Assembly: GCA_048941015.1 (NCBI GenBank)
Contig: JBHLNZ010000003.1
Span: forward strand, 32,001-96,000
Length of the DNA stretch: 64,000 nucleotides
Origin: Promethearchaeota archaeon
GTDB lineage: Archaea; Asgardarchaeota; Lokiarchaeia; Sigyniarchaeales; SOKP01
Reading direction: 5' to 3'
A program made the translations under genes and the position numbers. Of this stretch, positions 40,851 to 60,611 are shown piece after piece (position 1 is the stretch's first letter; every line of letters starts with the position of its first letter). The notes beneath the pieces were generated by a model. That model had not been told where the DNA came from. It did not search any database and saw only the letters and a program-made list of their open reading frames with translations.

Positions 40851-41864
40851 ATAATCCCTGAAAATGAAGAAAATAAAATAAAGTATAATTTTAAAGAGTG
40901 GACTGTTAAACAATTAAGAGAGTTTGCTGGAAAGAATAATATAACTATCCCCTCTAAATCTAAAAAAGTAGAAATAATAAAATTATTAAAGGAAATAACT
41001 TCTCACCCCGAATTTGTTGATAGAACTAAATCTGAAGATAAAGAAGATGAACAGGAAGAAGAACTTGAAATTGAACTGATTGCTGGAGAAGAAGAACCAG
41101 AGCTTATCAAAAGAGAAAAAATAGAATTAAAGTTTTGGCAAAAACCACCTTATTCTAGTTTATTAGATTCTGAATTAGCCAAACAATCAAATGTCGCATT
41201 TTATGATTTAGCTTCATTAGTTGATAAATTTTTTGATAATATGCTTCATGAAGATATCATTAATTACAAAATTTCTGGTATTGCGCTTAAAACTTCGGCA
41301 TCATTACACCATTATAAAATCTCAAGTATTATTAAAGAAGAAGAAGAAATACAAAAAAAACAAGAACTTGAGGAATTTAGAAGAAAACATGGCCGTACAA
41401 TTCCAAAAACTTTACCTCAACCAATTTCTCCTAAAATGATGATATCTACAAAAGAAGAATTATTTGAAGCAATGAGATCAGCAATAATCGAAACAATGCA
41501 ACAAAAAGAAAAATTAAGAAGGCGACGTTTACGTAGAGAGCAATTAAAGCAAGAAAGAATTCAAATGCAGTCAAAAGCACAATTACCTAAAGAACTTTTA
41601 AAACATATTAGTGGAAAAGAACAAACGATTGAAGAATTGCTTGAATCATGGTATAATCGCATCAAAGCAAGTATTAACCTTGATAATGAAGATACTAGCC
41701 TTTTTAGTATGGTCAATGTCATAAAAACCGAAGAAGAAAGCGATATTGGCAGAAAATTTGCGTTTGTAAGATTGTTTTTAGCATTAATGTTTTTGTCAAC
41801 GGGGAATAAATTAGTCTTATCTCAAGATGAGGATTTCAAAGATTTAATGATTAGTGTAAAATAA
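40851..41864 (+). CDS. scpA: Kleisin ScpA (about 337 aa) with N-terminal HeH/SAP-like module; non-canonical ATA/ATC start
   Basis: Frame open from 40827 to the track's ATG at 41241; the N-kleisin motif (PPY.SLLD...YDLASLVDKF...ISGIAL..SA.L...K) spans that ATG; C-terminal FLALMFL...L.Q.E.F.D; AAGGTG SD. Confidence 0.88.
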   Translation: MIPENEENKIKYNFKEWTVKQLREFAGKNNITIPSKSKKVEIIKLLKEITSHPEFVDRTKSEDKEDEQEEELEIELIAGEEEPELIKREKIELKFWQKPPYSSLLDSELAKQSNVAFYDLASLVDKFFDNMLHEDIINYKISGIALKTSASLHHYKISSIIKEEEEIQKKQELEEFRRKHGRTIPKTLPQPISPKMMISTKEELFEAMRSAIIETMQQKEKLRRRRLRREQLKQERIQMQSKAQLPKELLKHISGKEQTIEELLESWYNRIKASINLDNEDTSLFSMVNVIKTEEESDIGRKFAFVRLFLALMFLSTGNKLVLSQDEDFKDLMISVK

Positions 41865-41895
41865 TAATAATAATTTATAAATTTGAGTTGATTAA

Positions 41896-42660
41896 ATGAG
41901 TGAAGAGCATGAAAGTTTGAACGAAAATGAAAATTCAAATTCTGAGGGAGATTCGAATGAGAAACTTGAAATAATATCTAAAGAGAAATTGAATATAAAC
42001 AACCAATCTCATGATAACCTTCAAATCGACAATGAACAACAAGTTGATGAAACAATACGAGAACAGGAGAATATTTCTTTAGATGAAATTATAAAAGAAG
42101 GTGAAATTTCTCAAAAGGATGATGAAGAAGCTGTAGATGTACAATTAAAAGATTTACAAAAAAATTTAATAGAAGGAGCTCTTTATGCTGCTGGTAGACC
42201 TTTAGATATTGAAGAGTTATCAATAAAATTAGAGATTTCTAAAAAAATAGTAGAAGAGTTAGTCATGGAAGTAGCTTATGATTATTTGGAACGATCTAGT
42301 GCTTTAATTATAGCACAAATCGGAGATAAGTTCCAAATGCAAATTAGACCGGAATATACTGAAAAAGTATCAAAATTTGCAAAAGGAGGTGCGATTGCAG
42401 AACGATATTTACGAACTTTAACAATAATCGCTTTAAAGCAACCTATATTAAAATCTACTGTAATTAAATTAAGAGGAACCGGTGCTTATGAACATATTAA
42501 ATATTTATTAGATAATGATCTAATCTCTGCAGTAAAAAAAGGTAGGACTCATGAATTATCAACAACAGATAAATATGCAGAGATGTTTGGATTGCCAAAA
42601 AATAAGGAAGAATTACGAAAGGCAATGATACTACAGCTAGGATTAGAAAGTCAAGAATAA
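41896..42660 (+). CDS. scpB: SMC-Scp complex subunit ScpB with acidic N-terminal extension
   Basis: IEGALYAAGRPL, LRTL.IIA.KQPI, RG, TT.KY.E.FGL. Confidence 0.95.
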   Translation: MSEEHESLNENENSNSEGDSNEKLEIISKEKLNINNQSHDNLQIDNEQQVDETIREQENISLDEIIKEGEISQKDDEEAVDVQLKDLQKNLIEGALYAAGRPLDIEELSIKLEISKKIVEELVMEVAYDYLERSSALIIAQIGDKFQMQIRPEYTEKVSKFAKGGAIAERYLRTLTIIALKQPILKSTVIKLRGTGAYEHIKYLLDNDLISAVKKGRTHELSTTDKYAEMFGLPKNKEELRKAMILQLGLESQE

Positions 42661-42671
42661 ATCTATTTTCT

Positions 42672-43400
42672 TTAACAATTTTTTAATATAAATTTCATTT
42701 TAAAATAAGTTCTAAAACTAATTCCTAAAATTCTAAATATATGAATTAATGGATTTCTTATCAATCTTGATCTTCCATTGTTTCTTCTATAACAATCGAC
42801 AGGAATTTCCTTCACGTTAAATCCAAATAATTTAACTAATATAAACATTTCTTGAGCATAGTTATATTTACCAAAAAGCAATTTACTGAGAATTTTGCAG
42901 AGTTTTCTATTAAATGCTCTAAATGAACATTGTATATCATAAGTTTTATCAAGGCTTAATAAAATCTTGGAGATAAATATCGATAAAATCTTATTTCCTA
43001 ATTTTTTCATAAAATTTGTTTCATTTATCGTTCTATATTTGAATCTATTTCCAATCACTAAATCTGCTTTATTATTTAGTATTGGTAAAATTAAACATTC
43101 TATCTTTTTTGGATTATATTGTCCATCTGCGTCTAATATAGCTATAACATCTGCTTTATGTTTTAAACAATAGTTTAAACCAGTTTTTATAGCCTCACCT
43201 AAACCTAGATTTCTTTGGTGAGTAATTACCTTTGCTCCTGCATTTTTAGCTATTAAAGAAGTATTGTCTAAACTTCCATCATTAATTACAATGATTTCTT
43301 GTTTTATATTATGTATTTGAGGGATATTTTTGATTAAATTGGCAATATAGTTCTTCTCATTAAAAGCAGGAATCATTATAATTAAGGTTTTATTAAACAT
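42672..43400 (-). CDS. Glycosyltransferase family 2 (DPM synthase-like)
   Basis: IPAFNE, NDGS.D.T, DADGQ, GNRF. Confidence 0.92.
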   Translation of the reverse strand: MFNKTLIIMIPAFNEKNYIANLIKNIPQIHNIKQEIIVINDGSLDNTSLIAKNAGAKVITHQRNLGLGEAIKTGLNYCLKHKADVIAILDADGQYNPKKIECLILPILNNKADLVIGNRFKYRTINETNFMKKLGNKILSIFISKILLSLDKTYDIQCSFRAFNRKLCKILSKLLFGKYNYAQEMFILVKLFGFNVKEIPVDCYRRNNGRSRLIRNPLIHIFRILGISFRTYFKMKFILKNC

Positions 43401-43426
43401 AACTATAATTAAATGAAGGATAGATT

Positions 43427-46027
43427 TTACTTAAAAAAGAAGATTTTTAAATTTAAATCTTCCATCTCTTCTATTAGGTCTGGCTTCTCTTTAATTGACT
43501 CTTGTTTTGATCTTTCCAATATCTCTAAAGTTTTTATTCTTAAAGTTTGTTTAATATCTTCTTTTAAATCCCCAATTTCATTAACATGATCCCTGGGTAC
43601 TAATATAGTAATTCTTTTTATTTCTTGATTTAAGGGAATTTGAAGTTTAGATTTAAAGTTTCTTACATTCTTGATTAGTTCAATTCCTAATTTACCTTTA
43701 TCAGCAAGATCTTGAGGGATTTTATCATAAATCGTTGCCCACTTTTCTAAATGGACTGATTTTAATTTGGTATATTTTTTAAATAAAATCGAATAAATCT
43801 CTTCACTAATAAAGGGCATTATGAATGAAAATATGATGATGAGCTTATAAAATAGGTTTAATGCATTTTTTAAAGAAATTTGCTGGATTTTTTCGTCTTC
43901 CGAATAAAATTTATACTTAATTGCTTCAATATAGTTATCACATATCTCATTCCAAAAAAAAATCCTTGATTGCATGAATCCTTCATGCCAATTATACTCA
44001 TTATAATATTTCGTAATCTGTTCTAAATTTTTATTAAATTCAGTGAAAAAGTAACAATCTATAGGTGAGAGTTTATTAATATCAATTTCAAGATCCGGGA
44101 TTTGGATTTTTTTAGAATTAAGATATAAAAATCTGTAAGCATTCCACATCTTTGTTAAGAATCGGGACGAACCAATTAATTGTTCAAACCTTCTACTGTA
44201 CTTTTTATTAAATTTAACTTCTGAAAGAACTGTTTTCTCCTTTATTATTTTTTCATTATCAACTGGTTGTTTTGTCTGATTATTTATCCAAGTAAATTCA
44301 AAAGGATAATCATCACCTAGTGAACCTAAGGCTGCCCATTGTCTAATAGAGTCCGCTCCAAAATCAGGCATAACTTCATCTGGAGAAACAATATTGCCAT
44401 AACTTTTTGACATGTGTCTTCCATCCGGACCAGCCACCATTCCATTTATCATGGCTTCTGAAAAAGGAGCTTTTCCGGTTAATAATTTGCATCGAAAAAG
44501 AGTATAGAATAGCCAGGTACGTATAATTTCATACCCTTGAGGACGATGAACTTCAGCCTCTAAATATGTTCTTTTAAAAAAATATTCATCATCTAACCAC
44601 TTAGAAATAACTAATGGAGTAATACTGGAGTCAATCCAGCAATCACAGACATCTTTTTCACCAACAATCTGCTTACTTTTACATTTTGGGCAGGAGGTGA
44701 CTGGTGGCGCAATCTTGACAGGATCTATTGGTAAATCTTCTTTTTTCGGACTAATTATCTCTCCACATTCTTTACAATACCAAAATGGTATAGGGGTTCC
44801 AAAAACACGCTGACGTGAAATAACCCAATTCCAATCCAACCCATTAGCCCAATCTAGCAATCTTTGTTTATGTTTTTTGGGATACCAATTCATAACTTCA
44901 GCAGATTGGATTATATCTTCTGTAAAATCTTTTACATTAATAAACCATTGATAAACAGGTAAAAATTCAATTGGCCTTCGGCAAGAAGAACGTTCTGAAT
45001 GAATAATAATACTATGTTCATAATCTTCAATTTTCTCAATTAATCCCATTTTATCAAGATCTTTAACAATTTGTTCTCGAGCTTCTAAAATAGTAAGTCC
45101 TTTATATTTAGAGTTTTCATTCATAACTCCGCTTTCTGTGAAGATCTGAATTTCATCGAGATCATAATCGATTTTCCATTTTATATCCATTTCATCCCCA
45201 TATGTGCATACATAAACTACTCCCGTGCCAAAATTCATATCAACATTAGAATCCATATAAATACGGACAATTCGGTCAGCAATGGGAAGCTTGACTTCAG
45301 CGGCGGAAAGCTCATAATATCTTTGATCATTTGGATTAATTAAAACAGCAACACAAGCTTCCATGTATTCTGGTCGAGTGGTAGCAATGGTAATGTACTC
45401 ATTATCTCTTTCTACTAACGGGAGTTTAATATACCATAACTTTCCCAATTCTTCTTGATACCCTACTTCTGCTTTTGCAACAGATGTTTCACAATTTACG
45501 CAAAAATGAGTAGGAAACTTATCTCTATACAATAAGCCTTTTTCATAAAATTCTAAAAGAGAATATTGTACTTTTCGTTTATAATCATCATTCATAGTTC
45601 TATATGTATAATTCCAGTCAGTAGAATATCCTAACTCATCCAATTGTTCAGTCATATTATCTATATTATTTTTTACCCACTCAATACATTTTGCCAGAAA
45701 TGCATCTCTGTTATCTTTAGAAACCCCATAATTTTTTTCAACAGCTAACTCTACTGGAAGTCCATGACAGTCAAATCCTTGTGGGAAATACACGAAATCG
45801 CCCCTCAATTTATGATAACGAGCTACGAAATCAATCCAAGAATGATTTAAAATATGTCCCATATGAAGAGTACCACTTACGAATGGTGGTGGGGTATCAA
45901 TCGAAAATATTTTACCCTTTTGAGTAAAATCAAACTCATAAAGTTTCTCCTCTCGCCAAAATTTTATCCATTTCTGTTGGACTTCGTTGAATTTAAACCG
46001 CTTCGGATAAGTGCTTTCTTGTGCCAT
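43427..46027 (-). CDS. valS: Valine-tRNA ligase (archaeal type)
   Basis: IDTPPP, HMGH, WVISRQR.FG.PIP, HMSKS, PQGYEIIRTW. Confidence 0.96.
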   Translation of the reverse strand: MAQESTYPKRFKFNEVQQKWIKFWREEKLYEFDFTQKGKIFSIDTPPPFVSGTLHMGHILNHSWIDFVARYHKLRGDFVYFPQGFDCHGLPVELAVEKNYGVSKDNRDAFLAKCIEWVKNNIDNMTEQLDELGYSTDWNYTYRTMNDDYKRKVQYSLLEFYEKGLLYRDKFPTHFCVNCETSVAKAEVGYQEELGKLWYIKLPLVERDNEYITIATTRPEYMEACVAVLINPNDQRYYELSAAEVKLPIADRIVRIYMDSNVDMNFGTGVVYVCTYGDEMDIKWKIDYDLDEIQIFTESGVMNENSKYKGLTILEAREQIVKDLDKMGLIEKIEDYEHSIIIHSERSSCRRPIEFLPVYQWFINVKDFTEDIIQSAEVMNWYPKKHKQRLLDWANGLDWNWVISRQRVFGTPIPFWYCKECGEIISPKKEDLPIDPVKIAPPVTSCPKCKSKQIVGEKDVCDCWIDSSITPLVISKWLDDEYFFKRTYLEAEVHRPQGYEIIRTWLFYTLFRCKLLTGKAPFSEAMINGMVAGPDGRHMSKSYGNIVSPDEVMPDFGADSIRQWAALGSLGDDYPFEFTWINNQTKQPVDNEKIIKEKTVLSEVKFNKKYSRRFEQLIGSSRFLTKMWNAYRFLYLNSKKIQIPDLEIDINKLSPIDCYFFTEFNKNLEQITKYYNEYNWHEGFMQSRIFFWNEICDNYIEAIKYKFYSEDEKIQQISLKNALNLFYKLIIIFSFIMPFISEEIYSILFKKYTKLKSVHLEKWATIYDKIPQDLADKGKLGIELIKNVRNFKSKLQIPLNQEIKRITILVPRDHVNEIGDLKEDIKQTLRIKTLEILERSKQESIKEKPDLIEEMEDLNLKIFFFK

Positions 46028-46148
46028 GTTATTTCTAATTCAAATATTAAATTAATATAAAAGTGTATAATTAACCATAAAATTTTAAATTTTTTAATAA
46101 AAATAATGCAATTTAAGATTATAGAGGTAAATTCAAGTAAAATCTTAG

Positions 46149-46281
46149 TGGACCTGGCGGGAATTGAACCCGCGGCCTCGTGAATGCGAATCTCGCGTTG
46201 TATTATTCTTATATATACAATCACGCGTAGCAGTAGAGGTCAGATTTTGAATCCTAACATCTGCGACTAATCTACAGGCCC
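46149..46281 (-). tRNA. tRNA-Ala(CGC) with two introns: 24/25 (46228-46258) and 30/31 (46192-46221)
   Basis: G3:U70 and A73; anticodon arm CGTGA-TT-CGC-AT-TCACG after splicing; BHB helices GCAG/CTGC and CGCG/CGCG; D-loop lacks GG. Confidence 0.82.
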
Positions 46282-46386
46282 ATTAATCTTGACTAAAATA
46301 ACATATTATAAAAAATTGTATAACTAAAAATTTTTTCTTTTTCAAGGTGTTAAAAAATCAATTTTAAGCCTAAGAATTTAAAATTA

Positions 46387-48765
46387 CTAATATTGTGTTC
46401 GAGCGATTATATCATTTTGTGCAATTTCAGATAATTCAGTAAAATAGACAGCATATCCAGCAATTCTTACAACTAAACCACGATAATTATTTGGATTTTT
46501 TTGAGCATCACATAAAGTTTCTTTACCAACAACGTTAAATTGAATATGGAAACCTCCGTTCTTTTTGAAAAATGATCTTATAAGCGGTACAAATGTTTCT
46601 ATTTTAAAGTTTTTAGGATGAAAATCTATTATTATAGAGGTTCCATTAGTAATTAATTTATTTTCTAGTTTCATAATAGAATTTAAGATGGCCGTTGGAC
46701 CCTTTTTATCAAAATTGTGAGTAGGACCAATTCCATTTGAAAGTGGTTCTTTAGATTTTCTTCCATTGGCAGATGCTGCTGTAAAAAAACCAAATACTAA
46801 ATGAAATGAAGTAGAATATATTCCGGGATTATATTTACCACCTCGGTAATTATTATGTTTTAAAATCTCTTCGCAAAATAATTTTGCTACATCATGAGCA
46901 ATCAAATCAACATAATCATCATCATTTCCAAATTTTGGCACTTTATTAATAAAAATCTGACGCCACTCTTCTCCTTTTTTACCATTATAGGATCCCTTAT
47001 AATTTTTTGAAAGCATTTGAACTAATTGGTCATATGTAAGAAGTTTTTCTTCAAAAACTATTTTTTTAATAACAGCCAGACTATCTGCTACAGTTGCTAA
47101 TCCAATCAATTGAGTAGTTGTAAAATCATAAAAAGCACCTCCATTTGTAATATCAAAACCTCTATTAATACAGTCATCGATAGTTGATGATAAAAATGGT
47201 TGGGGGTTTAGTTCAGCAATTGCTCTTTCAAGATTATTCATTGTTTCAACCATCTTTTTAATAAAATATCTTAATTGTAAAGTAAACTCCTCCCATAGAT
47301 CTTTAAATGAAGCGATTTTCTTTGAGTTTTCAATGCCATATTTTCTTTTTATAAACATATCTGTTCCGTTATTTAGTGTTAATTCTAACAACTTTACGAC
47401 GTTTATTTGAGTTGCATTAGTACATCCGAAAGTTTTATGAGGATGTGCAGGTTCAACACAACCGATTGGAGCATATTCTCTAGCATCTTCGAGGGAATAT
47501 CCAAGATTTTTCAAACCAGGTATAATGACTAAATCATTAAATAAAGCAATGCTTGCGCCTGATTTAATTGCTTCCCCTGTCTTTAATATCAAATTATCTG
47601 GAGTTTTATCATGTATACGAACAGAAAATGCTGGTTGAATAGTCTTTAAATGGTTATAGGAATCTAGAAACAAGTATGATAATTCATTTGTTACATTCTT
47701 TCCAAATCGATCAATCCCACCGATTGTCAAATTTTCAGCAATTGGCGGACCTTCTCCAGCAACAATTCCCTTATGCATAACATAATTCCATAATGTACTT
47801 AATTTTATATAAAAACATTCAATAAGGAATTGAACTTCTTCATTAGTAATTCTATCATTTTTTATATCTTTTTTATAATATGGATAAAGAATTTGATCCA
47901 AGCGTCCAATACTTATCGCAAAACCCCCATCTTCTAATCCTGATATAACATGAGTAAAATAAATTAATTGTAAAGCTTCTTTAAAAGATTCTGGGGGATT
48001 TTCTGAAACATTTAAACATATTTTCGAAATTTCAATCAGTTCATTTCTGCGATCGGTGTTATTTTCTTGTTCTGCTAAATTTTTTGCGAGCTTTGAAAAT
48101 CTTTTTATATATTTTTTTACACCTTCTAAAATAATAATAACTGAACGTATAAAATTTAATTTTTCTGGCTCATTTGGGAAATATTTTAACTTTTTTTCTG
48201 CTTTTTGAATTAAATCATTAAAACCTCCTTTTAAAACGTTTTCATGTCCTGGAAAAAAATGTCCGACTCCATTTGTGATATTAACGTCGACAGTATAAGG
48301 TAACAGTACCATTAGTTCTGTTAATTCAGAGTTAAGATAATTATTGAATCGAGATTTCACAGTATCTTCTTCATTTTTCCAATAAGGTATGATCTCTTCT
48401 TTTATAATCCGTTTTTCAGTTTCAGTTAATAAAAATTTCTGAATCTCTCGACTACTGTACAGATCCAAATCAAGTTCAATTGTATCTACCCGAACTTCGG
48501 GATATAAAGGGGTACCAACAAATTTTGTAGTACGATTTCCAACTATGAACTCGTCGGTCCTAATCTGGATTGTCATGTTTGTTAATAAATGGTACATCGC
48601 TTTTGCAAATCGAAGTATTTGTGGTTCTCCTTTTGTTTTTTTATAGGACTCAGTAAATAGTTTAGCTCTCTCTATACAAATTTCGTGTGGTTGAGATAAA
48701 ATCTTCTTTTTCATTTCTAAAGTCCTTTCTTTATAATTTAGAATAAACGATTGTTCTAGTTGCAT
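46387..48765 (-). CDS. Glycyl radical enzyme (PFL superfamily, eliminase-like)
   Basis: IGCVEP Cys loop, PKFGNDD, HIQFNV, LVVRIAGY Gly loop. Confidence 0.93.
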   Translation of the reverse strand: MQLEQSFILNYKERTLEMKKKILSQPHEICIERAKLFTESYKKTKGEPQILRFAKAMYHLLTNMTIQIRTDEFIVGNRTTKFVGTPLYPEVRVDTIELDLDLYSSREIQKFLLTETEKRIIKEEIIPYWKNEEDTVKSRFNNYLNSELTELMVLLPYTVDVNITNGVGHFFPGHENVLKGGFNDLIQKAEKKLKYFPNEPEKLNFIRSVIIILEGVKKYIKRFSKLAKNLAEQENNTDRRNELIEISKICLNVSENPPESFKEALQLIYFTHVISGLEDGGFAISIGRLDQILYPYYKKDIKNDRITNEEVQFLIECFYIKLSTLWNYVMHKGIVAGEGPPIAENLTIGGIDRFGKNVTNELSYLFLDSYNHLKTIQPAFSVRIHDKTPDNLILKTGEAIKSGASIALFNDLVIIPGLKNLGYSLEDAREYAPIGCVEPAHPHKTFGCTNATQINVVKLLELTLNNGTDMFIKRKYGIENSKKIASFKDLWEEFTLQLRYFIKKMVETMNNLERAIAELNPQPFLSSTIDDCINRGFDITNGGAFYDFTTTQLIGLATVADSLAVIKKIVFEEKLLTYDQLVQMLSKNYKGSYNGKKGEEWRQIFINKVPKFGNDDDYVDLIAHDVAKLFCEEILKHNNYRGGKYNPGIYSTSFHLVFGFFTAASANGRKSKEPLSNGIGPTHNFDKKGPTAILNSIMKLENKLITNGTSIIIDFHPKNFKIETFVPLIRSFFKKNGGFHIQFNVVGKETLCDAQKNPNNYRGLVVRIAGYAVYFTELSEIAQNDIIARTQY

Positions 48766-48880
48766 TTTTTATCCCAAAATCATTCAATTTTTCTTTTTAT
48801 AAAGTTTTAAATAAACTAATAATACATTTTTTAATAAATATATCGATTAAAATATTCAATTCTAAAAGGTTTAAAATTTC

Positions 48881-49717
48881 CTAAAGATAAGAAGTAATTC
48901 GATTACTATCTTTTGGATAAAATAAAAGGCTTTCTTTATCTTTATCTTTATATCTTTTTATAGCTAAATCTAAATATTCCTTACTTATATCAATACCAAT
49001 GAATTTTCTTTTTAAAATACTACACACTATTCCTGTTGAACCTGATCCAACAAAAGGATCTAAAATAGTATCTCCTACATTAGAAGATGAAATAATAATT
49101 CTGTTTAACAATTCCAAAGGTTTTTGAGTAGGATGTTTCCCAAATTTTTTTTCTGTTTTTGGTATTAGAGGTATAGACCAAACACTTCTCATTTGTTTAT
49201 CTTTATTTTTTAATTTATCTTTTTGGTTATCCCATATTTTCATTTTTTCATAATTAAAAGTGTGTTGAGAATTTGTATCTTTACGAGCCCATAATAAGAT
49301 TTCATGACTATGGGTGAAATACTTACAAGATAGATTAGGTGGCGCATTTGGTTTATACCAAATAATATCATTAATGATATCAAAATTGTTTTTTTCTAGT
49401 AAATATCCTACCTTAAAAATCACATGAAAAGTCCCTGAAATCCAAATTGTACCATTCTCTTTTAAGACTCGCCTGCAACATTTTAACCAGTTATCAATAA
49501 ATTTTATATCATCTTCAAATCCTTTTGACTTATCCCAATCACCTTTATTGACAGAAACCATTTTTCCCGATGAACATGTAATTCCATCATTTGAAAGGAG
49601 GTATGGAGGATCTGCAAAAATCAAATTAAATTTCTCAGGTTCAATTTGTTCGAGGATTTCTAATGTATCTCCATGGTATAAAATGAAATCTTTTTCTTCA
49701 AAGTATGGTTCAATCAT
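48881..49717 (-). CDS. Orphan beta-class amino-DNA methyltransferase (DpnA-like)
   Basis: FADPPY precedes HPTQKP and DPFVGSGST; SVNKGDWD, W.KPN.PPNLSC. Confidence 0.9.
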   Translation of the reverse strand: MIEPYFEEKDFILYHGDTLEILEQIEPEKFNLIFADPPYLLSNDGITCSSGKMVSVNKGDWDKSKGFEDDIKFIDNWLKCCRRVLKENGTIWISGTFHVIFKVGYLLEKNNFDIINDIIWYKPNAPPNLSCKYFTHSHEILLWARKDTNSQHTFNYEKMKIWDNQKDKLKNKDKQMRSVWSIPLIPKTEKKFGKHPTQKPLELLNRIIISSSNVGDTILDPFVGSGSTGIVCSILKRKFIGIDISKEYLDLAIKRYKDKDKESLLFYPKDSNRITSYL

Positions 49718-50804: not shown

Positions 50805-53306
50805 ATGGGAATATTTCCAGAAAATCCATGTGAATTTGCAGTTGATTTTATTCGGAAAATGAGAGCTCACCCCGATATAGTTCAAATTCCATCTTCACGT
50901 CAAGTTTTATCTATCCCAAGATTAATTCTATCTAGATATTATAGGAAGGGGATCGTCACTCCAAATGATTATATCGAAATTAGTGAGGTCACTTCTTTTC
51001 CAGATAATCAAAATTTAGCTAAAGATATAGCATTCCAAATACTTTTTCCTAATTATAAAAAAGATATGGTTGATTCTTTTTTTCAAGATGAAATTGGATT
51101 AGAAAAGGATTCTAAAAATGATCTACTAGATCAGGAAATTAAAACTGAATTAGACAAACTTCAAGAGATTTTTGATGAAATTGAAATGTCTAAATCTATT
51201 GATACAGACTCTATTGAAGAGCTAGAAGATTTTTTGGAAGAATTAAATAGAAAACGAGAAGAAGAACCTTATAAATCAGCATTAGAATTTTTTAATGAAG
51301 ATTCGGAGCTGTTTAAAGAAGAGATCTCATCCTTAGAACAATTACTTAAAGAAGCTCAGAAAAGATTAGAACAGCGGATTAATACATTAGAACCTAATGA
51401 AATCAAAGCAGCAGCCAATTTAGGATTAAATGATTTAATCCAACAAAAATCATTGAGAGAATGGGAGAAATTGACAAGTAAGGCACTTGATAATCAAGAT
51501 ATTTCAAAAGATTTAGAAAATCTCCTCCAGTCTGGTAAGTTAGATGATTTATTAAATACTATGAAATTTTTAAATGATGCATCTGAGCAACCTCACATTA
51601 AAGATCAAATACAAAATCTTAAAAATCAATTGCAAAATCATCTCAATAATTTAGATGAATTATTTAATGCCGCTAAAACATTAGGAGAGACTCCCCGATT
51701 CAATCAGGAAGAGCTGATTAAAAATTCATTAACACAATCTTCATTTGAACACAACTTTAACTTAGCTAATTCATTAGACCAATATTTTGGAACAAATCTT
51801 AGAGAAAAGTTACTAAATGAATTCCATCAACAACATAAAAATTCTCAAATGAACTTATCGCTAGAAACCCTCACAAAAAGTGCATTTGCGAATAAAGCAT
51901 GGAATACTCTTTTCAATCAAGCTCTTGAAAATGCAAAAAAAGACGCTATAAATCAAAATATTAAATTTGAAGCCTTTAAATCTCTAACTCACCAATTACA
52001 ACAGTTAATGAATAGCTGTGCTAATATGCATTGTAGTCAAAAAATGTCTCAAAAACTTCCTGAACTCGTTTCTCAAACACTAAATAATTGTGAAAATTCT
52101 GACCAATTAAGAAATGCAACTGAGTTTTTAAGAAAAATAGGACTAAATCCTCAATCTGAGGATATACAGAAAGTCGGAAAGAAATTAAATATGCCTGATG
52201 AGGAGATTTATGAATTAATAGAACCTAATTATCAAATATTAAAAAAGATGATTGAAGAAAACACTGCTGATTTTCAGCGAATTAGTAATTTAATGAACCA
52301 AATTCAGGATCAATTAAACAAAGATAGACTTAAAGAATTGATTAGTAGCGCCTTAGCTAACGAAAATAGAGATGCCTTAGGTGCTCTTGGTCATTTTGAT
52401 TTAACTGAAGCTTTAAAAACAGCACAACAAATTGGAGGCAAAGAAGGCCAAGATAAAATGATTGCTTGCTTATCTGCAGGAAGTGGTGAAAATCTTTTGA
52501 AGCAATGGTTCATGCATCGCAAAAATTTGCCCGATGATGCAAAACAAAAAGTAAAAGAATTAGCAAAAAAAATGTTGATTGAACTTGGGATCTATTATTC
52601 TAGAGCAAGATTAGGTAGTTCTACAACCGGACCTATTCCTATAAATATAGTAAGACCATATACTATAGGAGATGATTTTGAAAATATAGATTTAGAAGAA
52701 ACTATATTTAATTTGTTAGAAAAGGGAAAAGAATTAGACCATATTGATTATGATGATTTTTATGTATATGAAACAGCAAAAGGCTTACGTTCGGCCTGTT
52801 TTGAACTAGATGTTAGCGGGTCAATGTCAGGTGATAAACTTGCATACATGAGTATCTGCGTAACAATGTTATGCTATGGGATGCGTAAAGATGAGCTTGG
52901 GATTGCTTTTTTTGAATCAAACACGCATGTGTTAAAGGAATTAGATAAAAAAGTAGATATGGAAAAGCTAGCAGATGATTTACTTTCTGTTACAGCAAGA
53001 GGCGGTACAAGATTACAAAGTGCAATAGAATGGGCTAATAAGCAATTTAAAGAAAACTCATCTTCACGTGAAAAGTTAAATGTCCTATTTACTGATGCAG
53101 AAATTTTTGATATACAACAAAGTATGCAAGAACTTAGAATAATGCGTTCTCTCGGAGTAGATTTTATTTTAGTTTGTCCAGAAACATCATATAGCTTGAA
53201 AGAAGCTGAAAAAATGGTTAAGATTGCAGGGGGGCAACTACTTACTATAAAGGATTGGAATGAATTTCCTAAGTTGATCTCTGATATTATTAAATCGAGA
53301 TTTTAA
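50805..53306 (+). CDS. VWA domain protein (MoxR partner)
   Basis: MIDAS DVSGS...GGT...TD at the C-terminus; long helical body. Confidence 0.9.
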   Translation: MGIFPENPCEFAVDFIRKMRAHPDIVQIPSSRQVLSIPRLILSRYYRKGIVTPNDYIEISEVTSFPDNQNLAKDIAFQILFPNYKKDMVDSFFQDEIGLEKDSKNDLLDQEIKTELDKLQEIFDEIEMSKSIDTDSIEELEDFLEELNRKREEEPYKSALEFFNEDSELFKEEISSLEQLLKEAQKRLEQRINTLEPNEIKAAANLGLNDLIQQKSLREWEKLTSKALDNQDISKDLENLLQSGKLDDLLNTMKFLNDASEQPHIKDQIQNLKNQLQNHLNNLDELFNAAKTLGETPRFNQEELIKNSLTQSSFEHNFNLANSLDQYFGTNLREKLLNEFHQQHKNSQMNLSLETLTKSAFANKAWNTLFNQALENAKKDAINQNIKFEAFKSLTHQLQQLMNSCANMHCSQKMSQKLPELVSQTLNNCENSDQLRNATEFLRKIGLNPQSEDIQKVGKKLNMPDEEIYELIEPNYQILKKMIEENTADFQRISNLMNQIQDQLNKDRLKELISSALANENRDALGALGHFDLTEALKTAQQIGGKEGQDKMIACLSAGSGENLLKQWFMHRKNLPDDAKQKVKELAKKMLIELGIYYSRARLGSSTTGPIPINIVRPYTIGDDFENIDLEETIFNLLEKGKELDHIDYDDFYVYETAKGLRSACFELDVSGSMSGDKLAYMSICVTMLCYGMRKDELGIAFFESNTHVLKELDKKVDMEKLADDLLSVTARGGTRLQSAIEWANKQFKENSSSREKLNVLFTDAEIFDIQQSMQELRIMRSLGVDFILVCPETSYSLKEAEKMVKIAGGQLLTIKDWNEFPKLISDIIKSRF

Positions 53307-53311
53307 TTAAT

Positions 53312-55678
53312 ATGACAAAAAAAGAATTAGTAGATAAAATTATTGAAAATTTTGGCATTGAATTATATAAAAAAGCAAAAGAATTTCCTAATAATAAAAT
53401 AAATCTTATTTCTTTTAGAAAAACTCCCATAAAAGTAAGGGCACTTATTTTAGATAATGAACGTGAATTCCATCTTATAATAGATGAATATAAAAATGAA
53501 ATTTTTCATGATTGTCCTTCTTTCTTAATTCATAGTAATTTAGATGATAAAATATGTATACATATCATTAAGTTACTTTTATCAATAGACACCTATCTTT
53601 CTTTAAAGATCCTTACAAATCTAAGTAGATATAGTCTAACTTCAGAAGATTTTGGTTCCAAAAAAAAAAGTAAAAATTTTATTAAATTAGCAAACATATG
53701 TTTCGAGAATAATAACTGTGTTGAGGGACTTAATTATCTAAATAAAGCAATTATCAATCAATATGACTGTGAGCCAATAATCGAACGTTATTTTCAAAAC
53801 GCAATAAAAAATGATTTATTTATTGAATTTTTTGAATTTTTAAAAATTGGATTTGAAAATGAGCTTAATAGCTATTTTCTAAAATTCAATGATTATATTG
53901 AAAGAGGATTCAAATTATTTTTAAATTCAGTCTCTCTTTATTCCTTTTTTGATATATTAAGAATTATTGAATATATTGATTATGTATTAGAAAAATACCA
54001 ATTCCAAAGTAATTCCTTTATTTCTTCTATACTTAACAAATTATCAAAAATGGTTAAATCGAATAATTTTAATGAGAGATACTTCTCAATATATTTTATT
54101 AAGAAAAATTTACCAAAATTGATTAACTTTGACTCTAAATTTGAAAATCTAATCACTCAAAACGATTATCAATTATTTAAAGAAGAAATAATTAATTATT
54201 TTTTAAACGAGATTGAAAATTTTTGTATTATTGATAAATTAAAACTAATGAAAAAACATTTTGAAGTATTTGAGATTCCAAAAATTGAATATCAGGAACA
54301 ATATAAGAATTATAAAGAAGAAATAAGAGAATTAGAGAGAAAAGTCTACTTAAAAAAATTTGCTTTTCTTAAACTTCTTATAGAACAATATAATATAAAA
54401 AAAAGTAAAGTAAATTTTAGAAAAAAAAGAAACACTTATGTTGTCAATCATGATAAAGAGAATTTAGAAAATCCTGCTTATAATTATGTTATTAAGCATG
54501 TTGGATTCTTTGGAATAAGTGAATCTACGATAAAATCATCAGAAATTGGAATAAATTATCTAATTATAAAAGAATTGTTCTTAGATGACTTTACAATTTT
54601 TCCTGATATTTTTTACTATAAAAAGCAATTCTGGGGGGAAAATGATAATTATAAAATAAGTTTAATAGAAGGATTTTCTGTTTTAAGCTCTCAAGTTAAT
54701 TATAACTATGAAATAGATCAAAATTATTCGAATATGAATGAGATTTTAATCGTTGAATGGGATCTAGCAAGCAAACCACGACAAGCTAGTTTAGTGAATG
54801 CATATGGTTCTCAAATAATAATTCCAGATCAAAATAATCCCTTATTTCATGACTTAAAACCATTTGACTTATGTTATTGTAAAAAAACCCCTATAAAAAT
54901 GGAAGGTAATATTAAAACCATTAATGTCCTTACCAAATGCTCGTTTAAAGAAGCTATTAATAGTATTTCAAAGGGAATGTTATATATTGAAGGATACTAT
55001 CCTTTATCATTAGTAAATGATGTCTTAAAAAGAAGAATAAGCCCATTTAAAGCAAATGAGCTAGTCATTAATAATCCAAACAAATTATTTGTGCCAAATT
55101 ATAAGCAGTTCATAAAAGCATTTAGAGAATTTTTATTTGAATTTATAAACAAAGAAAAAGATTATATTTACAATGAATTAGTTAAAGATCCTCAAGAAAA
55201 TATTAATCAACTCCTCATTCTACTAAATCTGACAACCGAATTAGCTGGTATAGACCTTCCGTATACTGAAATCATAAAAAAAGCGTTAATTCAAGATATT
55301 CAATTAAAAGAATTAAGAGAAAAGTTGATTAATGAAATTCATTTAAGTATAAGGCAATTACTAAATAAGAAAGAACTTGGATCAACAAAAATATTTAATC
55401 TTAAGAAGATGCGGCATACACCTTTTATCCAATATTCTCAAGAAATAATAAAATTAAGAAAAGAAGAGCTTGAAAAAGCAAGTATCATTAAAAAAATTGA
55501 AGATGATACTATCTGTTATGACTTCTCTGAAGTAAATAATACTTATTATGGAATAAAATTTGCCAAAGCATTGAATATAGGGAGTAGATCAAAAATAAGC
55601 CAAGAAATCTTGAATAAATTTTCTAAATTTTTGTCAAAATTAAATATTGAATTAAATATCATTGATCAAACATCTTAA
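53312..55678 (+). CDS. Hypothetical protein with N-terminal SWIM-like Zn finger
   Basis: HDCPSF...KICIH. Confidence 0.7.
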   Translation: MTKKELVDKIIENFGIELYKKAKEFPNNKINLISFRKTPIKVRALILDNEREFHLIIDEYKNEIFHDCPSFLIHSNLDDKICIHIIKLLLSIDTYLSLKILTNLSRYSLTSEDFGSKKKSKNFIKLANICFENNNCVEGLNYLNKAIINQYDCEPIIERYFQNAIKNDLFIEFFEFLKIGFENELNSYFLKFNDYIERGFKLFLNSVSLYSFFDILRIIEYIDYVLEKYQFQSNSFISSILNKLSKMVKSNNFNERYFSIYFIKKNLPKLINFDSKFENLITQNDYQLFKEEIINYFLNEIENFCIIDKLKLMKKHFEVFEIPKIEYQEQYKNYKEEIRELERKVYLKKFAFLKLLIEQYNIKKSKVNFRKKRNTYVVNHDKENLENPAYNYVIKHVGFFGISESTIKSSEIGINYLIIKELFLDDFTIFPDIFYYKKQFWGENDNYKISLIEGFSVLSSQVNYNYEIDQNYSNMNEILIVEWDLASKPRQASLVNAYGSQIIIPDQNNPLFHDLKPFDLCYCKKTPIKMEGNIKTINVLTKCSFKEAINSISKGMLYIEGYYPLSLVNDVLKRRISPFKANELVINNPNKLFVPNYKQFIKAFREFLFEFINKEKDYIYNELVKDPQENINQLLILLNLTTELAGIDLPYTEIIKKALIQDIQLKELREKLINEIHLSIRQLLNKKELGSTKIFNLKKMRHTPFIQYSQEIIKLRKEELEKASIIKKIEDDTICYDFSEVNNTYYGIKFAKALNIGSRSKISQEILNKFSKFLSKLNIELNIIDQTS

Positions 55679-55791
55679 ATATATTAGAAAACCCTCTAAT
55701 TATGTTTTCATTTTGATAATTTACATTATTTTTATATTTTACATGATCTTCTATTAATTAAGTTCAATTAAAAAATCAAGATTTTAATGAA

Positions 55792-57075
55792 ATGATAAAC
55801 AAAAAATTTCACCATCCTTCAAAAGATATAATAGAAACTAAAGGGACTATTTTAAGAGGAAAAACTATATGTATGTGCTTAACTGGTTCAGTAGCTATAA
55901 TCACTGCTCCAATTATTGCACGAGAATTAATGCGTTTAGGTGCAGAAGTAATTGCTGTAATGTCAAAGGCTGCTACAGAATTAATGAACCCTTCATTGAT
56001 GCACTGGGCTACAGGTAATCCCGTAATTACTAAATTAACAGGAGCAGTAGAACATGTCTTTTTAGCTGGAGATAGACCTAATGAAGTTGGTAAAGCAGAC
56101 CTAATTTTATTATGTCCTGCAACTGCAAACACTATTTCAAAAATTGCAAATGGAATAGATGATACACCAGTAACTACAGTAGTTTCTACAGCGTTTGGTT
56201 CTTCTATTCCTATAGTAATTGTACCGGCAATGCATGAAAGCATGTTCCATCCAATTCTCGAAAAAAATATCCTTTTTTTAAAAAAATATGGTATTGATAT
56301 TTTAGGTCCACGGATCTCAGAGGGGAAGGCAAAAATCGCAAAAGTAGATGATATTATAGATAGGGTTATTGATTTATTAGTTGCAAAGAAAGATCTCGAA
56401 GGCAAAACTATTTTAATTACTACAGGCCCAACTCGAGAATATATTGACGAGATTAGGTTTGTTTCAAATAATTCTTCTGGAAGAATGGGAATTGAAATTG
56501 CTAAAGAAGCTGCTGCTAGAGGCGCCGATGTGTTATTAATTGCTGGTAAATGTATGGTAAAAATTCCTGAGTATATAAAAACTATTAATGTTATCTCAAC
56601 TGATGATTTTATCAAGACGGTGAAAGATGAATTATCATATAAAGACTATGATTTTTTTATCTGTGCTGCTGCAATCAGTGATTATAAACCAGTTGAATAT
56701 ATTCAAGGGAAAATTTCTTCTGATAATGTTAAAGAGTTACAAATTAATATGAGATTAACTCCTAAAATCATAAATGAAGCAAGAAAAAAGAACTATAAGA
56801 CATTTATTGTTGGTTTTAAAGCAGAAATAGATGTTTCAAGAAGTGAATTAATTGAACGTGCTTATAGCAGACTAAAAGCATCAGAAATTGATTTGATTGT
56901 AGCAAACGATGTAGGCAGAGAAGATATTGGATTTGGCAGCAAAGATAATGAAGTTTATATAATAAGTAAAGACAAACACATTACACATGTAGAGAAATCT
57001 ACAAAGAGATATGTAGCTTCAAAAATTTTAGACGCTGCACTGGAAAATTATCGTATAAGAGAGTTTAAATCTTAA
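55792..57075 (+). CDS. coaBC: Bifunctional phosphopantothenoylcysteine decarboxylase/synthase
   Basis: TGSVA, PATANTISK, PAMH, TGPTRE.ID.IRFVSN.SSG.MG, GFKAE, VANDV. Confidence 0.95.
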   Translation: MINKKFHHPSKDIIETKGTILRGKTICMCLTGSVAIITAPIIARELMRLGAEVIAVMSKAATELMNPSLMHWATGNPVITKLTGAVEHVFLAGDRPNEVGKADLILLCPATANTISKIANGIDDTPVTTVVSTAFGSSIPIVIVPAMHESMFHPILEKNILFLKKYGIDILGPRISEGKAKIAKVDDIIDRVIDLLVAKKDLEGKTILITTGPTREYIDEIRFVSNNSSGRMGIEIAKEAAARGADVLLIAGKCMVKIPEYIKTINVISTDDFIKTVKDELSYKDYDFFICAAAISDYKPVEYIQGKISSDNVKELQINMRLTPKIINEARKKNYKTFIVGFKAEIDVSRSELIERAYSRLKASEIDLIVANDVGREDIGFGSKDNEVYIISKDKHITHVEKSTKRYVASKILDAALENYRIREFKS

Positions 57076-57308
57076 ATTGCAATATTATATTGATTTTTAT
57101 TACTTTTAGAAAACATTTAAATAACAAATCAATTTCTTTTCAAAATGAAGGAATATTTACATTTTAAGATGTTGAGATGATTGAATAAATATTGGGATAT
57201 AAATCCTATATCTTTACCATATCTAATAGCTTAACCCATAAATATACATGTATTTATTTATAAATTTGTAATTAAAATATTGAACAAATGTGAAAGTGAG
57301 AAGTAAAA

Positions 57309-60300
57309 ATGACCTCTGAAGATGATGAAGGAAGGATAACCCAAGGTACAATTGCTCAATTCATGCGAAAAAGAACACAGTTAGTTGGATTTGAATTTGG
57401 GTATTGGAAGCACGTACAATATTGTGCCGAGTTCTTAGATAACGCTTTAGATGCTATAGAGTCTTTTCAATGGAACGAAATAGTAAAGGATGATTCAAGT
57501 ATAAAATTTTCTCTAGATCAAGATCTAGCTTTAGAACATTTATCTATTCTTCAAGAAGCAAGAGAAGATGAGGAAATACAACCATTAAATCACGAAGCGA
57601 AATTAACATTAATGAAGGAACTTCATCTAAAATCTGGTGAATCTATAGCTGAAGAAGCAGAAAAATTTGAAGATAAAGAAGAAGAATCGGGAGAAGTAAT
57701 AGACAAAAGTGAATTAGAAGTTGAAGAGGAAGTTAGACTAATTATCGAAGATATGAATGAAATTATCAAACCTGTTGAGGTAATTATTGATATTGAGCCA
57801 ATTGTAATAATTAGATTAAGAGAATCTGAAGCTTCTTCGTTTTTAACTTCTGATATCTCTCAAAAAAATGTAATGAGTTATACTTTCGAAATATTTGATA
57901 ATGGTCTTGGCATGGGAAAAGGAGATTTGCGTAAATTTGGTAAGTACTTAGCATCTTCAAAAAGTGTCGAATTAAAACAAACTCGAGGAAGTCAAGGATT
58001 TGGAGCTCCAAGTGCATTCAGTGATGCTCAAAATACTACAGGAAAACCCATTGTTGCAGTTTCAAAGTCTGCAGAAAGTATTTATGCTACTGTCTCTGAA
58101 TTTTTTACCACATCTAAAAATGAAAAAAGATACCTTGTTCACCCCTCTGAGGTTGATTGCCCATTTATACATGGAACATATATCAAATTACACTATTTAA
58201 ATGTAAAATACATTCGAGGATATTTAGAAACCTATATTAAAGAGACCGCTTTAATGAATCCGCATATTACTATTATTTATATTGATCCTTCCGGTGAGGA
58301 ATGGATTTATCGAAGATTAGTGTCATCTTTCCCTAAAGAACCGAAATATGCTAAACCTCACCCATCTTCCACAAATATAGGAGATTTACAAGATCTTTTA
58401 ACGAAATCAAATAACTTAACAGTTTCAGCTTTTCTGCAAGACAATTTTGTAAGAGTTAGCTCTAAAACAGCAAAAGAAATAATAAATATCGCGGAAAGAG
58501 ATTTACAAGATGAATTAAATCTTCTAATTTTAAAAAACGGATATATCACCAAAATTGATAATAAATCAGATTCAATTTATTATTTAAATTATGAAAAACG
58601 GATTTTTGGACGTTCTGAAAAAGAAAGAGATAAATTAGTTATATATGAATTAACATCTGAAGATATAAAACAGAAATATTTAGAGTTGATATCTAATTAT
58701 AAGAATCTTGACAAAGAGCTGGAAAAAATCAATAAGGAAATAAAAAAACAAAATAATTTAATTGAAAAAGCTGACACGAAGAAGGACACACACAAAATAG
58801 AAAAAAATATTGAAAAGCTATTAAAAGATTTTGAAGTTATTGTAAGAAAAAAAGAAAAAATTAAAGGTGATCTTGATAAAATTATCCAAACTTCTAAAGC
58901 AAGTTTGCAAGAACTTAAAAAGTTTAAAGAAAGGAATGAATTTGAAGATTTAATTAATCAGGTGCAATTATCCAAAGCTAAACCAAAAGAATTATCAAAT
59001 TTACAGTTTAATTCGCTTTTTAATGCATTTAAATCAATAAAATATATGGCCCCTCCAACAGATACGGCGATTCCCGTAGGTGATAGTGTATTAGAAAACA
59101 CATTAATTAAGGAAATAGGCTTAAAAGTTTCAGAAAATTTGGATGAATTTGATGCTCCAATCGAAAGATTAAAAAATTTATCTAATGAATTGGAAAAATT
59201 AAAGAAAAAAGACCTTATTAAAGAAGACCCTTCTATAAAAGAAATTGATATTAAAAAAGAAGATATTATTGATTATAGTAAAAAGATTTTAGTAGGCATA
59301 AATTTTGAAGAGGAAAATACATCGCCTGATGATTTTAAACAATCTATAAAAGATATTGTCCAAACTTCTAAAGAAATATTAAAAGAAAGTTATCAAGATG
59401 TATTCGATTTTTTTTTAGAAACTTATACTAAAGAGGATGATTTTGTTGCCGCTGAGACAAGACCTCCAACAAGCGGGAAAGGGCTTGCCTATATTGTTGA
59501 AGCGGCTTTAGCTTATTGTAATGATCCTAAAAAACTAGAAACTCCAAAACGCTCAAGAGATGTCTTATCAAGGTTTGTGAACAGAACTCCTAAATTGAGA
59601 GATAGTGCAGATTGCGCTATCACAAAAGCTGCTCAATCAGTAAATTGGAAGAATTATAAACTTGATACCTATGATAATAATCTTCCAAAAGGACCTATTA
59701 AATTATTAGTAAATGTTTCAGGTCCATATGTCCATTTAATGTTTAAATCGCAATCTAAAAATGCATTAGCAGATGATGAGGAATTAATTAAGGAGATTAA
59801 ATATTGTCTTGAGGCTATAGGAAGAAGATTAAGAGTATATCTTAATAGAAAAGCCACTATTCATAAAAGCCAGAAAAGAGCTAGTTTAATTGAACAATAT
59901 ATCCCTATTTTTGTAGAAAGTGTATATAATATTGCTTCAAAAGGAAAAACTAAATACAAAGAAAAAATCTCAAAAGAAGATTTAGAAATTTTAATGAAAG
60001 ATGCGATTGGAAAAAAAGCTGTTAAAGTTTCCCCACAAAAAGTTGAAATAACTAAACCAGAAATAAAAAGGAAGGAAATTGAAAAAATAACACCAAAAAA
60101 AGTTGCGATTGAATGGGAAAAAGCGCCTCTTGAACAAACTCCTCTTATTAAATCTACTAAAGTAGAAGAACAAGCATTATCTGTAAAAACGCTTAATAAT
60201 TGGACTATTAAAGAATTAAGAGAGTACTGTGTTGATAACCATATCGATATCCCTTCAAAAATCAAAAAACCTGAAATCATTAAAACCATACAAGAATATT

Positions 60301-60611
60301 ATACTAAGAAAAAGGAAATTAAAATCCCTATTAAACCTATTAAACAAAGAGAAGAACCACCTAAAATTAAACCAGAAATCGCTCCAGTGACCCCCACATT
60401 AACTCAAACAACCCTTCCAGTTATAACAACAGAAAAAATTCTAGCAGTACTATCTCAAGATTGGCAAAATATAACCCATTTAATTTTTAAATTAAAAATA
60501 AAGGATATGATGGATGCAAGATACCTTCAGAATAAATTAAAAGATCTTGTTAGAAAAGAAAAAATCTTAGTAGAAATAAAAAAAGGTAAAAAACATTGGA
60601 AATTAAGGTGA
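57309..60611 (+). CDS. top6B: DNA topoisomerase VI subunit B, expanded (1100 aa)
   Basis: EFLDNALDA, DNGLGM, QTRGSQGFG, NPH, KPHP, RFVNRTP, NWKNY, FKSQSK. Confidence 0.93.
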   Translation: MTSEDDEGRITQGTIAQFMRKRTQLVGFEFGYWKHVQYCAEFLDNALDAIESFQWNEIVKDDSSIKFSLDQDLALEHLSILQEAREDEEIQPLNHEAKLTLMKELHLKSGESIAEEAEKFEDKEEESGEVIDKSELEVEEEVRLIIEDMNEIIKPVEVIIDIEPIVIIRLRESEASSFLTSDISQKNVMSYTFEIFDNGLGMGKGDLRKFGKYLASSKSVELKQTRGSQGFGAPSAFSDAQNTTGKPIVAVSKSAESIYATVSEFFTTSKNEKRYLVHPSEVDCPFIHGTYIKLHYLNVKYIRGYLETYIKETALMNPHITIIYIDPSGEEWIYRRLVSSFPKEPKYAKPHPSSTNIGDLQDLLTKSNNLTVSAFLQDNFVRVSSKTAKEIINIAERDLQDELNLLILKNGYITKIDNKSDSIYYLNYEKRIFGRSEKERDKLVIYELTSEDIKQKYLELISNYKNLDKELEKINKEIKKQNNLIEKADTKKDTHKIEKNIEKLLKDFEVIVRKKEKIKGDLDKIIQTSKASLQELKKFKERNEFEDLINQVQLSKAKPKELSNLQFNSLFNAFKSIKYMAPPTDTAIPVGDSVLENTLIKEIGLKVSENLDEFDAPIERLKNLSNELEKLKKKDLIKEDPSIKEIDIKKEDIIDYSKKILVGINFEEENTSPDDFKQSIKDIVQTSKEILKESYQDVFDFFLETYTKEDDFVAAETRPPTSGKGLAYIVEAALAYCNDPKKLETPKRSRDVLSRFVNRTPKLRDSADCAITKAAQSVNWKNYKLDTYDNNLPKGPIKLLVNVSGPYVHLMFKSQSKNALADDEELIKEIKYCLEAIGRRLRVYLNRKATIHKSQKRASLIEQYIPIFVESVYNIASKGKTKYKEKISKEDLEILMKDAIGKKAVKVSPQKVEITKPEIKRKEIEKITPKKVAIEWEKAPLEQTPLIKSTKVEEQALSVKTLNNWTIKELREYCVDNHIDIPSKIKKPEIIKTIQEYYTKKKEIKIPIKPIKQREEPPKIKPEIAPVTPTLTQTTLPVITTEKILAVLSQDWQNITHLIFKLKIKDMMDARYLQNKLKDLVRKEKILVEIKKGKKHWKLR

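Follow-up and report, generated by a model that had tools for sequence, protein, structure and literature searches.

A SAP/HeH-type module on the kleisin ScpA, topoisomerase VI subunit B and other proteins in one family of Asgard archaea

The window analyzed here is a 64,000-nucleotide stretch of the genome of Promethearchaeota archaeon (GenBank assembly GCA_048941015.1, contig JBHLNZ010000003.1; C64:32001-96000 in our numbering), a genome of 3.59 Mb in 144 contigs with a G+C content of 29%. It contains smc, scpA and scpB, and, further downstream, top6B and top6A, which encode topoisomerase VI (Topo VI). An earlier note, made from the sequence alone, had claimed that a peptide encoded ahead of the first canonical start codon of scpA recurs in the tail of Top6B and that the pair acts as a shared targeting tag. 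We found the same module on both proteins, as the note had said, but also on further carriers that it had overlooked. The features concerned are as follows, with positions given as those of the window.

36378 to 40826, plus strand: smc, 1,482 amino acids (aa), Pfam SMC_N at E 5e-41
40840 to 40846, plus strand: Shine-Dalgarno (SD) site GAAGGTG of scpA; a GGTG/GGAG motif is conserved before the aligned start in relatives
40854 to 41864, plus strand: scpA (kleisin), coding sequence as proposed, 336 codons including the stop, non-canonical ATC start
40890 to 40994, plus strand: SAP/HeH-type module, copy 1, ScpA residues 13 to 47 counted from the ATC
41001 to 41123, plus strand: acidic disordered linker from the module to the kleisin N-domain, recognized from its sequence and from its AlphaFold2 (AF2) confidence (predicted local distance difference test, pLDDT, of 30 to 41 at residues 60 to 89)
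41896 to 42660, plus strand: scpB (kite subunit), Pfam SMC_ScpB at E 7.7e-32
57309 to 60611, plus strand: top6B, 1,100 aa and about twice the usual length, Pfam Topo-VIb_trans (PF09239) at E 2e-29 over residues 709 to 856
60192 to 60296, plus strand: SAP/HeH-type module, copy 2, Top6B residues 962 to 996, within a tail rich in lysine, proline and glutamate (K/P/E-rich)
60426 to 60608, plus strand: probable terminal winged-helix-like domain of Top6B, with approximate bounds, proposed from conservation in relatives
60596 to 61804, plus strand: top6A, Pfam TOP6A-Spo11_Toprim at E 6.6e-59 and TP6A_N at E 9.4e-19

The two peptides quoted in the earlier note proved to be exact translations of 40890-40994 and 60192-60296, and the gapless resemblance between them was borne out. 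The ScpA and Top6B stretches align without a gap, with 19 of 32 positions identical (59%; BLASTP with compositional adjustment, E 3e-9), and low-complexity linkers adjoin both copies, acidic in ScpA and K/P/E-rich in Top6B. On this alignment, the two 35-residue stretches are homologous. A search with the ScpA module through the six reading frames of the entire genome (3.59 Mb) gave three matches and no others: the module, the copy in Top6B (E 1.2e-7) and a third one, on another contig (C135:16256-16360). Because there were only three matches genome-wide, the similarity between ScpA and Top6B is not an artefact of AT-rich composition.

The suggested kinship with helix-extension-helix domains was supported by Pfam, an AF2 model and structural matches alike. 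The best Pfam match of the ScpA copy was HeH (E 7e-4, 19.6 bits against a gathering cutoff of 28.9) and that of the Top6B copy was Ish1 (E 0.026, 15.3 bits against 26.6), with Rho_N and SAP also found below threshold. Tandem paralogues in relatives pass the gathering scores, with 38.2 for HeH, 33.6 for SAP, 30.4 for Ish1 and 27.7 for Rho_N at locus L039, and another copy of the same subfamily (L044) scored 35.3 for Rho_N, again over the gathering score. A profile built from 21 module sequences (A2) and searched against 1.84 billion proteins at E ≤ 1e-3 retrieved 2,961 cluster representatives. All 10 of the matches scanned, which were picked from the top 63, belonged to SAP, Rho_N or HeH, most of them well over the Pfam cutoffs; they hold such domains in repeated form, and 4 of the 10 also have phage Mu-F domains.

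Modeled alone with AF2, the module reached a pLDDT of 87.7 and formed two helices (residues 9 to 18 and 29 to 41) with a ten-residue loop between them. Foldseek E values were weak for this model and for that of ScpA (none ≤ 0.001), and ranking, template modeling (TM) scores and VIA-align Z scores were used instead. In VIA-align, T4 endonuclease VII occupied the top row (Z 6.7), and Rho_N, SAP and LEM structures made up most rows at Z 4 to 6.3, values below 8 that on their own could reflect a common arrangement, so that the clan assignment rests on fold and sequence together. The structural neighbors include the Rho N-domain (1a62; Z 6.0, 1.5 Å over 42 residues), the SAP domains of E1B-AP5 (1zrj), Tho1 (1h1j), PIAS1, Ku70, SLX4, FAN1 and MKL1 (Z 4.3 to 5.8, 1.3 to 1.9 Å), LEM domains, and the SAP-like domain of MANF/CDNF. 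The module is a member of the known SAP/HeH/LEM/Rho_N clan, with a helix-extended loop-helix structure, and not a new fold.

The protein that carries copy 1 is encoded together with smc and scpB, in the order smc, kleisin open reading frame (ORF), scpB. Pfam SMC_ScpA (PF02616) gave no match to it at E ≤ 0.1, and the orthologue from genus g14 matched at E 0.0018, under the cutoff; since the Pfam model misses it, the ScpA of the window is a divergent archaeal kleisin. An AF2 model of ScpA, computed from a 45-sequence alignment, had a mean pLDDT of 69.6, with about 79 for the helix-loop-helix of the module within the full protein. Its C-terminal winged helix gave 4i99_C, 5xg3_C, 6qj2_B and 1w1w_E as top Foldseek rows (target-normalized TM up to 0.77, probability 1.00), and these structures are the C-terminal winged-helix domains of ScpA, Brn1 and Scc1 bound to SMC heads. 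A PDB sequence search with the ScpA profile returned only a weak match to the Scc1 C terminus (E 0.51). The neighboring SMC protein is long, at 1,482 aa against the usual ~1,200 aa, and the TAA stop codon of smc (40824-40826) is in frame with scpA in the genome of the window only and not in relatives.

The carrier of copy 2 is identified as Top6B by its transducer domain (PF09239) and by top6A directly downstream. The GHKL ATPase region was matched below threshold (HATPase_c_3, E 0.003, 17.9 bits against a cutoff of 25), and an acidic insert interrupts the domain. The module sits past the transducer in the K/P/E-rich tail, ahead of the terminal winged-helix-like domain. This last domain also occurs in relatives without the module (g14) and, with weaker similarity, in one other family of the order. 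As the earlier note had held for canonical ScpA and Top6B, the module is absent from the Pfam models of ScpA and of the Top6B transducer.

In ScpA, the module shares its reading frame with the ORF ending at 41864 and lies 5' of the first canonical start codon of that ORF, ATG 41241; from the upstream stop (40824-40826) to this ATG, the frame is without ATG, GTG or TTG. The N-terminal extension with its module is nevertheless clearly coding and translated, judging from comparison among relatives. Those are Asgard metagenome-assembled genomes labeled Promethearchaeota, Hodarchaeota, Lokiarchaeota or Thorarchaeota at NCBI. Wherever the 5' end of scpA is assembled in genomes of the same genus (roughly 32 of 42), the whole extension is kept at 67 to 75% identity. 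Across module and linker, the proportion of nonsynonymous differences (pN) is 0.13 to 0.2, and that of synonymous differences (pS) is saturated at 0.6 to 1.1. Among 120 database homologues of ScpA, 80 carry the module, many with a true ATG ~15 codons before a conserved tryptophan (M-P/S-E-E), and in 40 entries, automatic annotation truncates ScpA inside or after the module.

The most likely start of scpA is the AUC at 40854, and the same position appears to be served by a non-canonical AUC, AUU or AUA codon across the genus. The triplets ATC-CCT-GAA at 40854 are the codon-for-codon equivalent of ATG-CCA-GAA (M-P-E) in relatives. In 30 loci with a readable start region, GGTG or GGAG lies 4 to 12 nucleotides upstream of the aligned start position, where the codon is ATG in 4 loci, ATC, ATT or ATA in about 25 and neither type in one (L007); 4 of the about 25 also have an in-frame GTG just upstream. 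At least 11 loci have an in-frame stop no more than 5 codons upstream of the start position. The 16S rRNA of the genome ends in GGATCACCTCCT at its 3' end, and genome-wide, SD-like motifs are enriched before start codons: the share of positions preceded by one was 17.6% for first ATGs in long ORFs and 6.6% for random positions. It is the probable non-canonical start behind a strong SD site that makes the module look hidden. An alternative start at ATA 40851 is less likely. Three other routes were rejected: readthrough of the smc stop codon to give an SMC-ScpA fusion (the frames differ in relatives, several of which have stops inside or just past the SD site), a frameshift from the out-of-frame ATG at 40865 (this ATG is not conserved in relatives), and initiation at the GTG within GGTG (out of frame in most genomes).

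That the extension is untranslated in this genus, with ScpA starting at ATG 41241 and the module a decaying remnant, would fit the lack of an in-frame canonical start before 41241 and the shortening of many orthologues by automatic gene callers. We regard it as very improbable. In an alignment of ScpA (A3), invariant columns begin at residue 21 and become dense from residue 93, and the methionine at 41241 is residue 130, so a start there would cut into the strongly conserved kleisin N-domain. Purifying selection on the extension is like that on the core (ratio of nonsynonymous to synonymous substitution rates, dN/dS, 0.12 for module plus linker and 0.08 for the ScpA core, against the closest relative), and the frame stays open in 30 aligned relatives despite saturated synonymous sites. 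A strong, conserved SD site stands before the ATC, ATT or ATA codon and none before 41241. The hidden N terminus proposed in the earlier note has thus turned out to be genuinely coding, given the conserved extension, its dN/dS, the conserved SD site and the ATG at the equivalent position in relatives.

To map the distribution of the module, we used a narrow profile on 101 genomes of the family of the window (f1) and 19 from other families of the order, and a broader profile on a phylum sample of 25 f1 genomes and 125 genomes from 28 other families. The narrow profile detected the module in 95 of the 101 f1 genomes versus 2 of the 19 others, both marginal; the broader one detected it in 22 of 25 versus 1 of 125. 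Within this sampling, the module subfamily is, by its sequence profiles, a lineage-specific expansion in one Asgard family. The only f1 genus to lack it was g14, with the module in none of its 5 genomes.

Carriers were counted by ORF size classes in the 42 genomes of the genus, and four recurred: ScpA (~32), Top6B (~29), a GIFT/GldG-like protein of 412 to 450 aa (~33) and a gelsolin-like protein (~30). The Top6B figure refers to Top6B-sized ORFs (1,050 to 1,150 aa), in which the module is conserved in other genera as well. The earlier expectation that the ScpA and Top6B fusions are conserved held, since both are present across genera of the family. The third copy in the genome of the window lies at the C terminus of the GIFT/GldG-like protein; a ribbon-helix-helix label that the Joint Genome Institute (JGI) annotation gives to some GIFT-domain carriers was not reproduced by Pfam and was set aside. 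The gelsolin-like protein has a layout like that of 1DGelX, a Thorarchaeota actin-severing protein (PMC7444086), and in most members of the genus, its C terminus bears one module or two (with module: L038, L039, L041-L043, L054 and L056-L059). In the orthologue from the genome of the window itself (C6:2846-3799), the module was looked for and not found.

Other carriers are rarer. In genus g16, RadA (L053:919-2244, minus strand, and L055) has an N-terminal module and an acidic linker ahead of its helix-hairpin-helix (HhH) and ATPase core (Rad51, E 3.9e-93). A 526-aa protein of a relative (L040:1377-2954, plus strand) has an internal module and a C-terminal, restriction-endonuclease-like NOV_C domain (E 1.2e-14), and further copies lie on a 782-aa and a 246-aa protein without assigned function. 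In the genome of the window, a 315-aa SWIM-type protein (C121:544-1488) combines a divergent N-terminal Rho_N/SAP-like copy (E 4.6e-5) with a CxC..CxH zinc-finger motif; several relatives have a conserved counterpart of about the same length. This range of carriers goes part of the way toward the outcome that the earlier note had named as refuting its idea, the module on many unrelated proteins. Several carriers do act on DNA; the gelsolin-like and GIFT/GldG-like proteins are not obviously DNA proteins. In a tree of 149 module copies, which is of low resolution because only 35 residues could be used, the copies grouped by carrier, and those of ScpA and Top6B were not sisters. The grouping by carrier indicates that each fusion is old, independent and vertically inherited.

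Taken together, we favor, at a probability of roughly 60%, the reading that the module is a lineage-specific SAP/HeH add-on that was fused independently to several proteins and serves as an auxiliary, largely sequence-independent anchor on double-stranded DNA. In this scheme, a SAP/HeH/LEM/Rho_N subfamily expanded in one Asgard family and became attached through flexible low-complexity linkers to the ScpA N terminus, the Top6B C-terminal tail and the C terminus of the GIFT/GldG-like protein, and in relatives to gelsolin-like proteins, RadA, NOV_C proteins and others. The predicted effect of the module is a higher local concentration of every carrier on the AT-rich chromosome; in SMC-ScpAB, its place would be close to the neck and heads of SMC, the site at which DNA is clamped, and in Topo VI, close to the DNA gate of Top6A. 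We predict DNA binding because SAP and HeH domains typically bind DNA, because the module combines a basic loop with a helix 2 that opens with a conserved K/R-K, and because several carriers act on DNA. By count from the sequence, the net charges of the ScpA, Top6B and GIFT/GldG-like copies are +6, +2 and +1. ScpA orthologues without the module speak for the same reading, as they carry other N-terminal elements that resemble nucleic acid binders: a zinc-finger-like motif, CPYC..H..C, followed by an acidic linker, in g14 (L045:1501-2490, minus strand, and L046) and a basic low-complexity N-tail in family f2. The kleisin N terminus thus seems, from these sequences, to be a spot where small elements of this kind come and go.

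Several observations weigh against a DNA anchor. The gelsolin-like and GIFT-domain carriers are well conserved and are not obviously DNA proteins, and where acidic linkers adjoin the module, as they do for several copies, they could cover a basic face that binds DNA. Both copies in the window score under the Pfam gathering thresholds, and the scpA start codon is placed by comparison among relatives. SAP-like folds can also bind proteins, as LEM does with BAF, and the Foldseek list is topped by the SAP-like domain of MANF/CDNF bound to the nucleotide-binding domain of BiP. These last points lead to a different function, in which the module would be a protein-protein hub that docks in the manner of LEM or the MANF SAP-like domain to one scaffold, gathering chromosome enzymes, RadA and an actin regulator at one cellular site. 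The fold neighbors that bind proteins (MANF/CDNF with BiP, the emerin LEM domain with BAF), the functional diversity of the carriers, including a gelsolin-like protein, and the consistent placement of the module in a tail or at an end of the protein, attached by a flexible linker, would all suit such a hub. We nevertheless consider it unlikely, as no candidate partner was identified, most characterized SAP and HeH domains bind nucleic acid, and the basic loop and helix 2, together with a majority of carriers engaged in DNA transactions, fit DNA binding more simply.

The proposal of the earlier note, that the module on ScpA and Top6B is an address tag which brings both to the same DNA feature or partner and so couples loop extrusion to decatenation, fared less well. 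What stood is a common module, of the same subfamily and 59% identical, conserved on both proteins across genera of the family and missing from both in g14 and outside the family; cooperation of SMC complexes and type II topoisomerases is, moreover, established elsewhere. However, the module is also present on gelsolin-like, GIFT-domain, RadA, NOV_C and SWIM proteins, and the tree does not pair the ScpA copies with those of Top6B. In g14, all carriers are without the module, so its joint absence is not specific to ScpA and Top6B, and no common substitute took its place on the two: ScpA gained its zinc-finger-like motif, whereas Top6B (L060 and L061) kept the P/K-rich tail and the terminal winged-helix-like domain, with nothing in place of the module. 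Although many family members have the scpAB and top6BA loci on a single contig at a distance of 16 to 28 kb, functional clustering was rejected, as the genes between them are unrelated in function (a GT2 glycosyltransferase, a class I aminoacyl-tRNA synthetase, a pyruvate formate-lyase-like enzyme, a DNA methylase, MoxR and von Willebrand factor type A (VWA) proteins, an unknown protein and CoaBC). No evidence singles out a DNA feature or partner that the two would share. We hold this proposal to be highly doubtful, and of the readings considered, a device dedicated to coupling SMC and Topo VI has the least support. A wider version, in which the module would be a common address tag that tethers SMC-ScpAB, Topo VI, RadA in some genera and a gelsolin-type regulator to one chromosomal or scaffold site, is only slightly less improbable. 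If it were true, it would amount to an Asgard-specific link between chromosome and cytoskeleton, built on the same fold as the chromatin and nuclear-envelope tethers of eukaryotes, of which SAP, LEM and HeH domains are a hallmark.

By placing such a domain on its kleisin, on Topo VI-B and on a recombinase as well as an actin regulator, one Asgard family illustrates how, among the close relatives of eukaryotes, domains concerned with chromosome maintenance have been shuffled in a lineage-specific way. The domain is already known and domain shuffling is ordinary; our literature search on Asgard SAP domains, kleisin, Topo VI and archaeal non-canonical starts found no description of the fusions or of a non-AUG scpA start. 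The apparent AUC, AUU and AUA starts matter in practice, in that standard gene callers truncate scpA and so hide the module and some of the kleisin N-domain, with consequences for comparative work on the SMC complexes of archaea. The module also provides concrete constructs for DNA-binding tests.

Among known systems, SAP domains (PF02037; Tho1, Ku70, PIAS1, SAF-A, SLX4) share with the module the helix-extended loop-helix of ~35 residues, the L..L/V..LR pattern of helix 1, a helix 2 that opens with K/R-K followed by hydrophobic residues, and a flexible tether to DNA-transaction proteins. They differ in that the single copies of the window stay under the Pfam score, which only the tandem paralogues pass, in that DNA binding is predicted here, and in the carriers, which are an archaeal kleisin, Top6B, RadA and gelsolin-like proteins. 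HeH/LEM (PF12949; Heh2/Src1/MAN1, emerin, LAP2) and Ish1 (PF10281) provide the best Pfam matches, and LEM is among the fold neighbors, but the carriers described here are soluble enzymes or cytoskeletal regulators, outside any membrane-protein or nuclear-envelope context, and no BAF-like partner is known. The Rho N-terminal domain (PF07498) agrees in sequence pattern, in fold (1a62), in a profile match to 3l0o and in the L044 copy that exceeds the gathering score; the module, however, is not attached to the RNA-binding or ATPase core of Rho.

As to the carriers, the ScpA of the window resembles canonical ScpA (PF02616) and Scc1/Brn1 in the position of its gene between smc and scpB, in a C-terminal winged helix that superposes on theirs, and in the JGI annotation of its orthologues as kleisin; unlike them, it has an N-terminal SAP/HeH module with an acidic linker and, most likely, a non-AUG start, and PF02616 does not match it. 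MukB-Topo IV and condensin-Topo II involve direct protein contact or functional interplay. Here, too, a functional link between an SMC complex and a type II topoisomerase could exist, but what they have in common is just an accessory domain that is also present on unrelated proteins. The scpA start itself recalls the AUU start of bacterial infC, likewise a conserved codon other than AUG, GUG or UUG behind a good SD site, an arrangement that suggests low or regulated translation. Unlike infC, scpA belongs to an archaeal system without IF3, and its start codon varies among AUC, AUU and AUA in close relatives.

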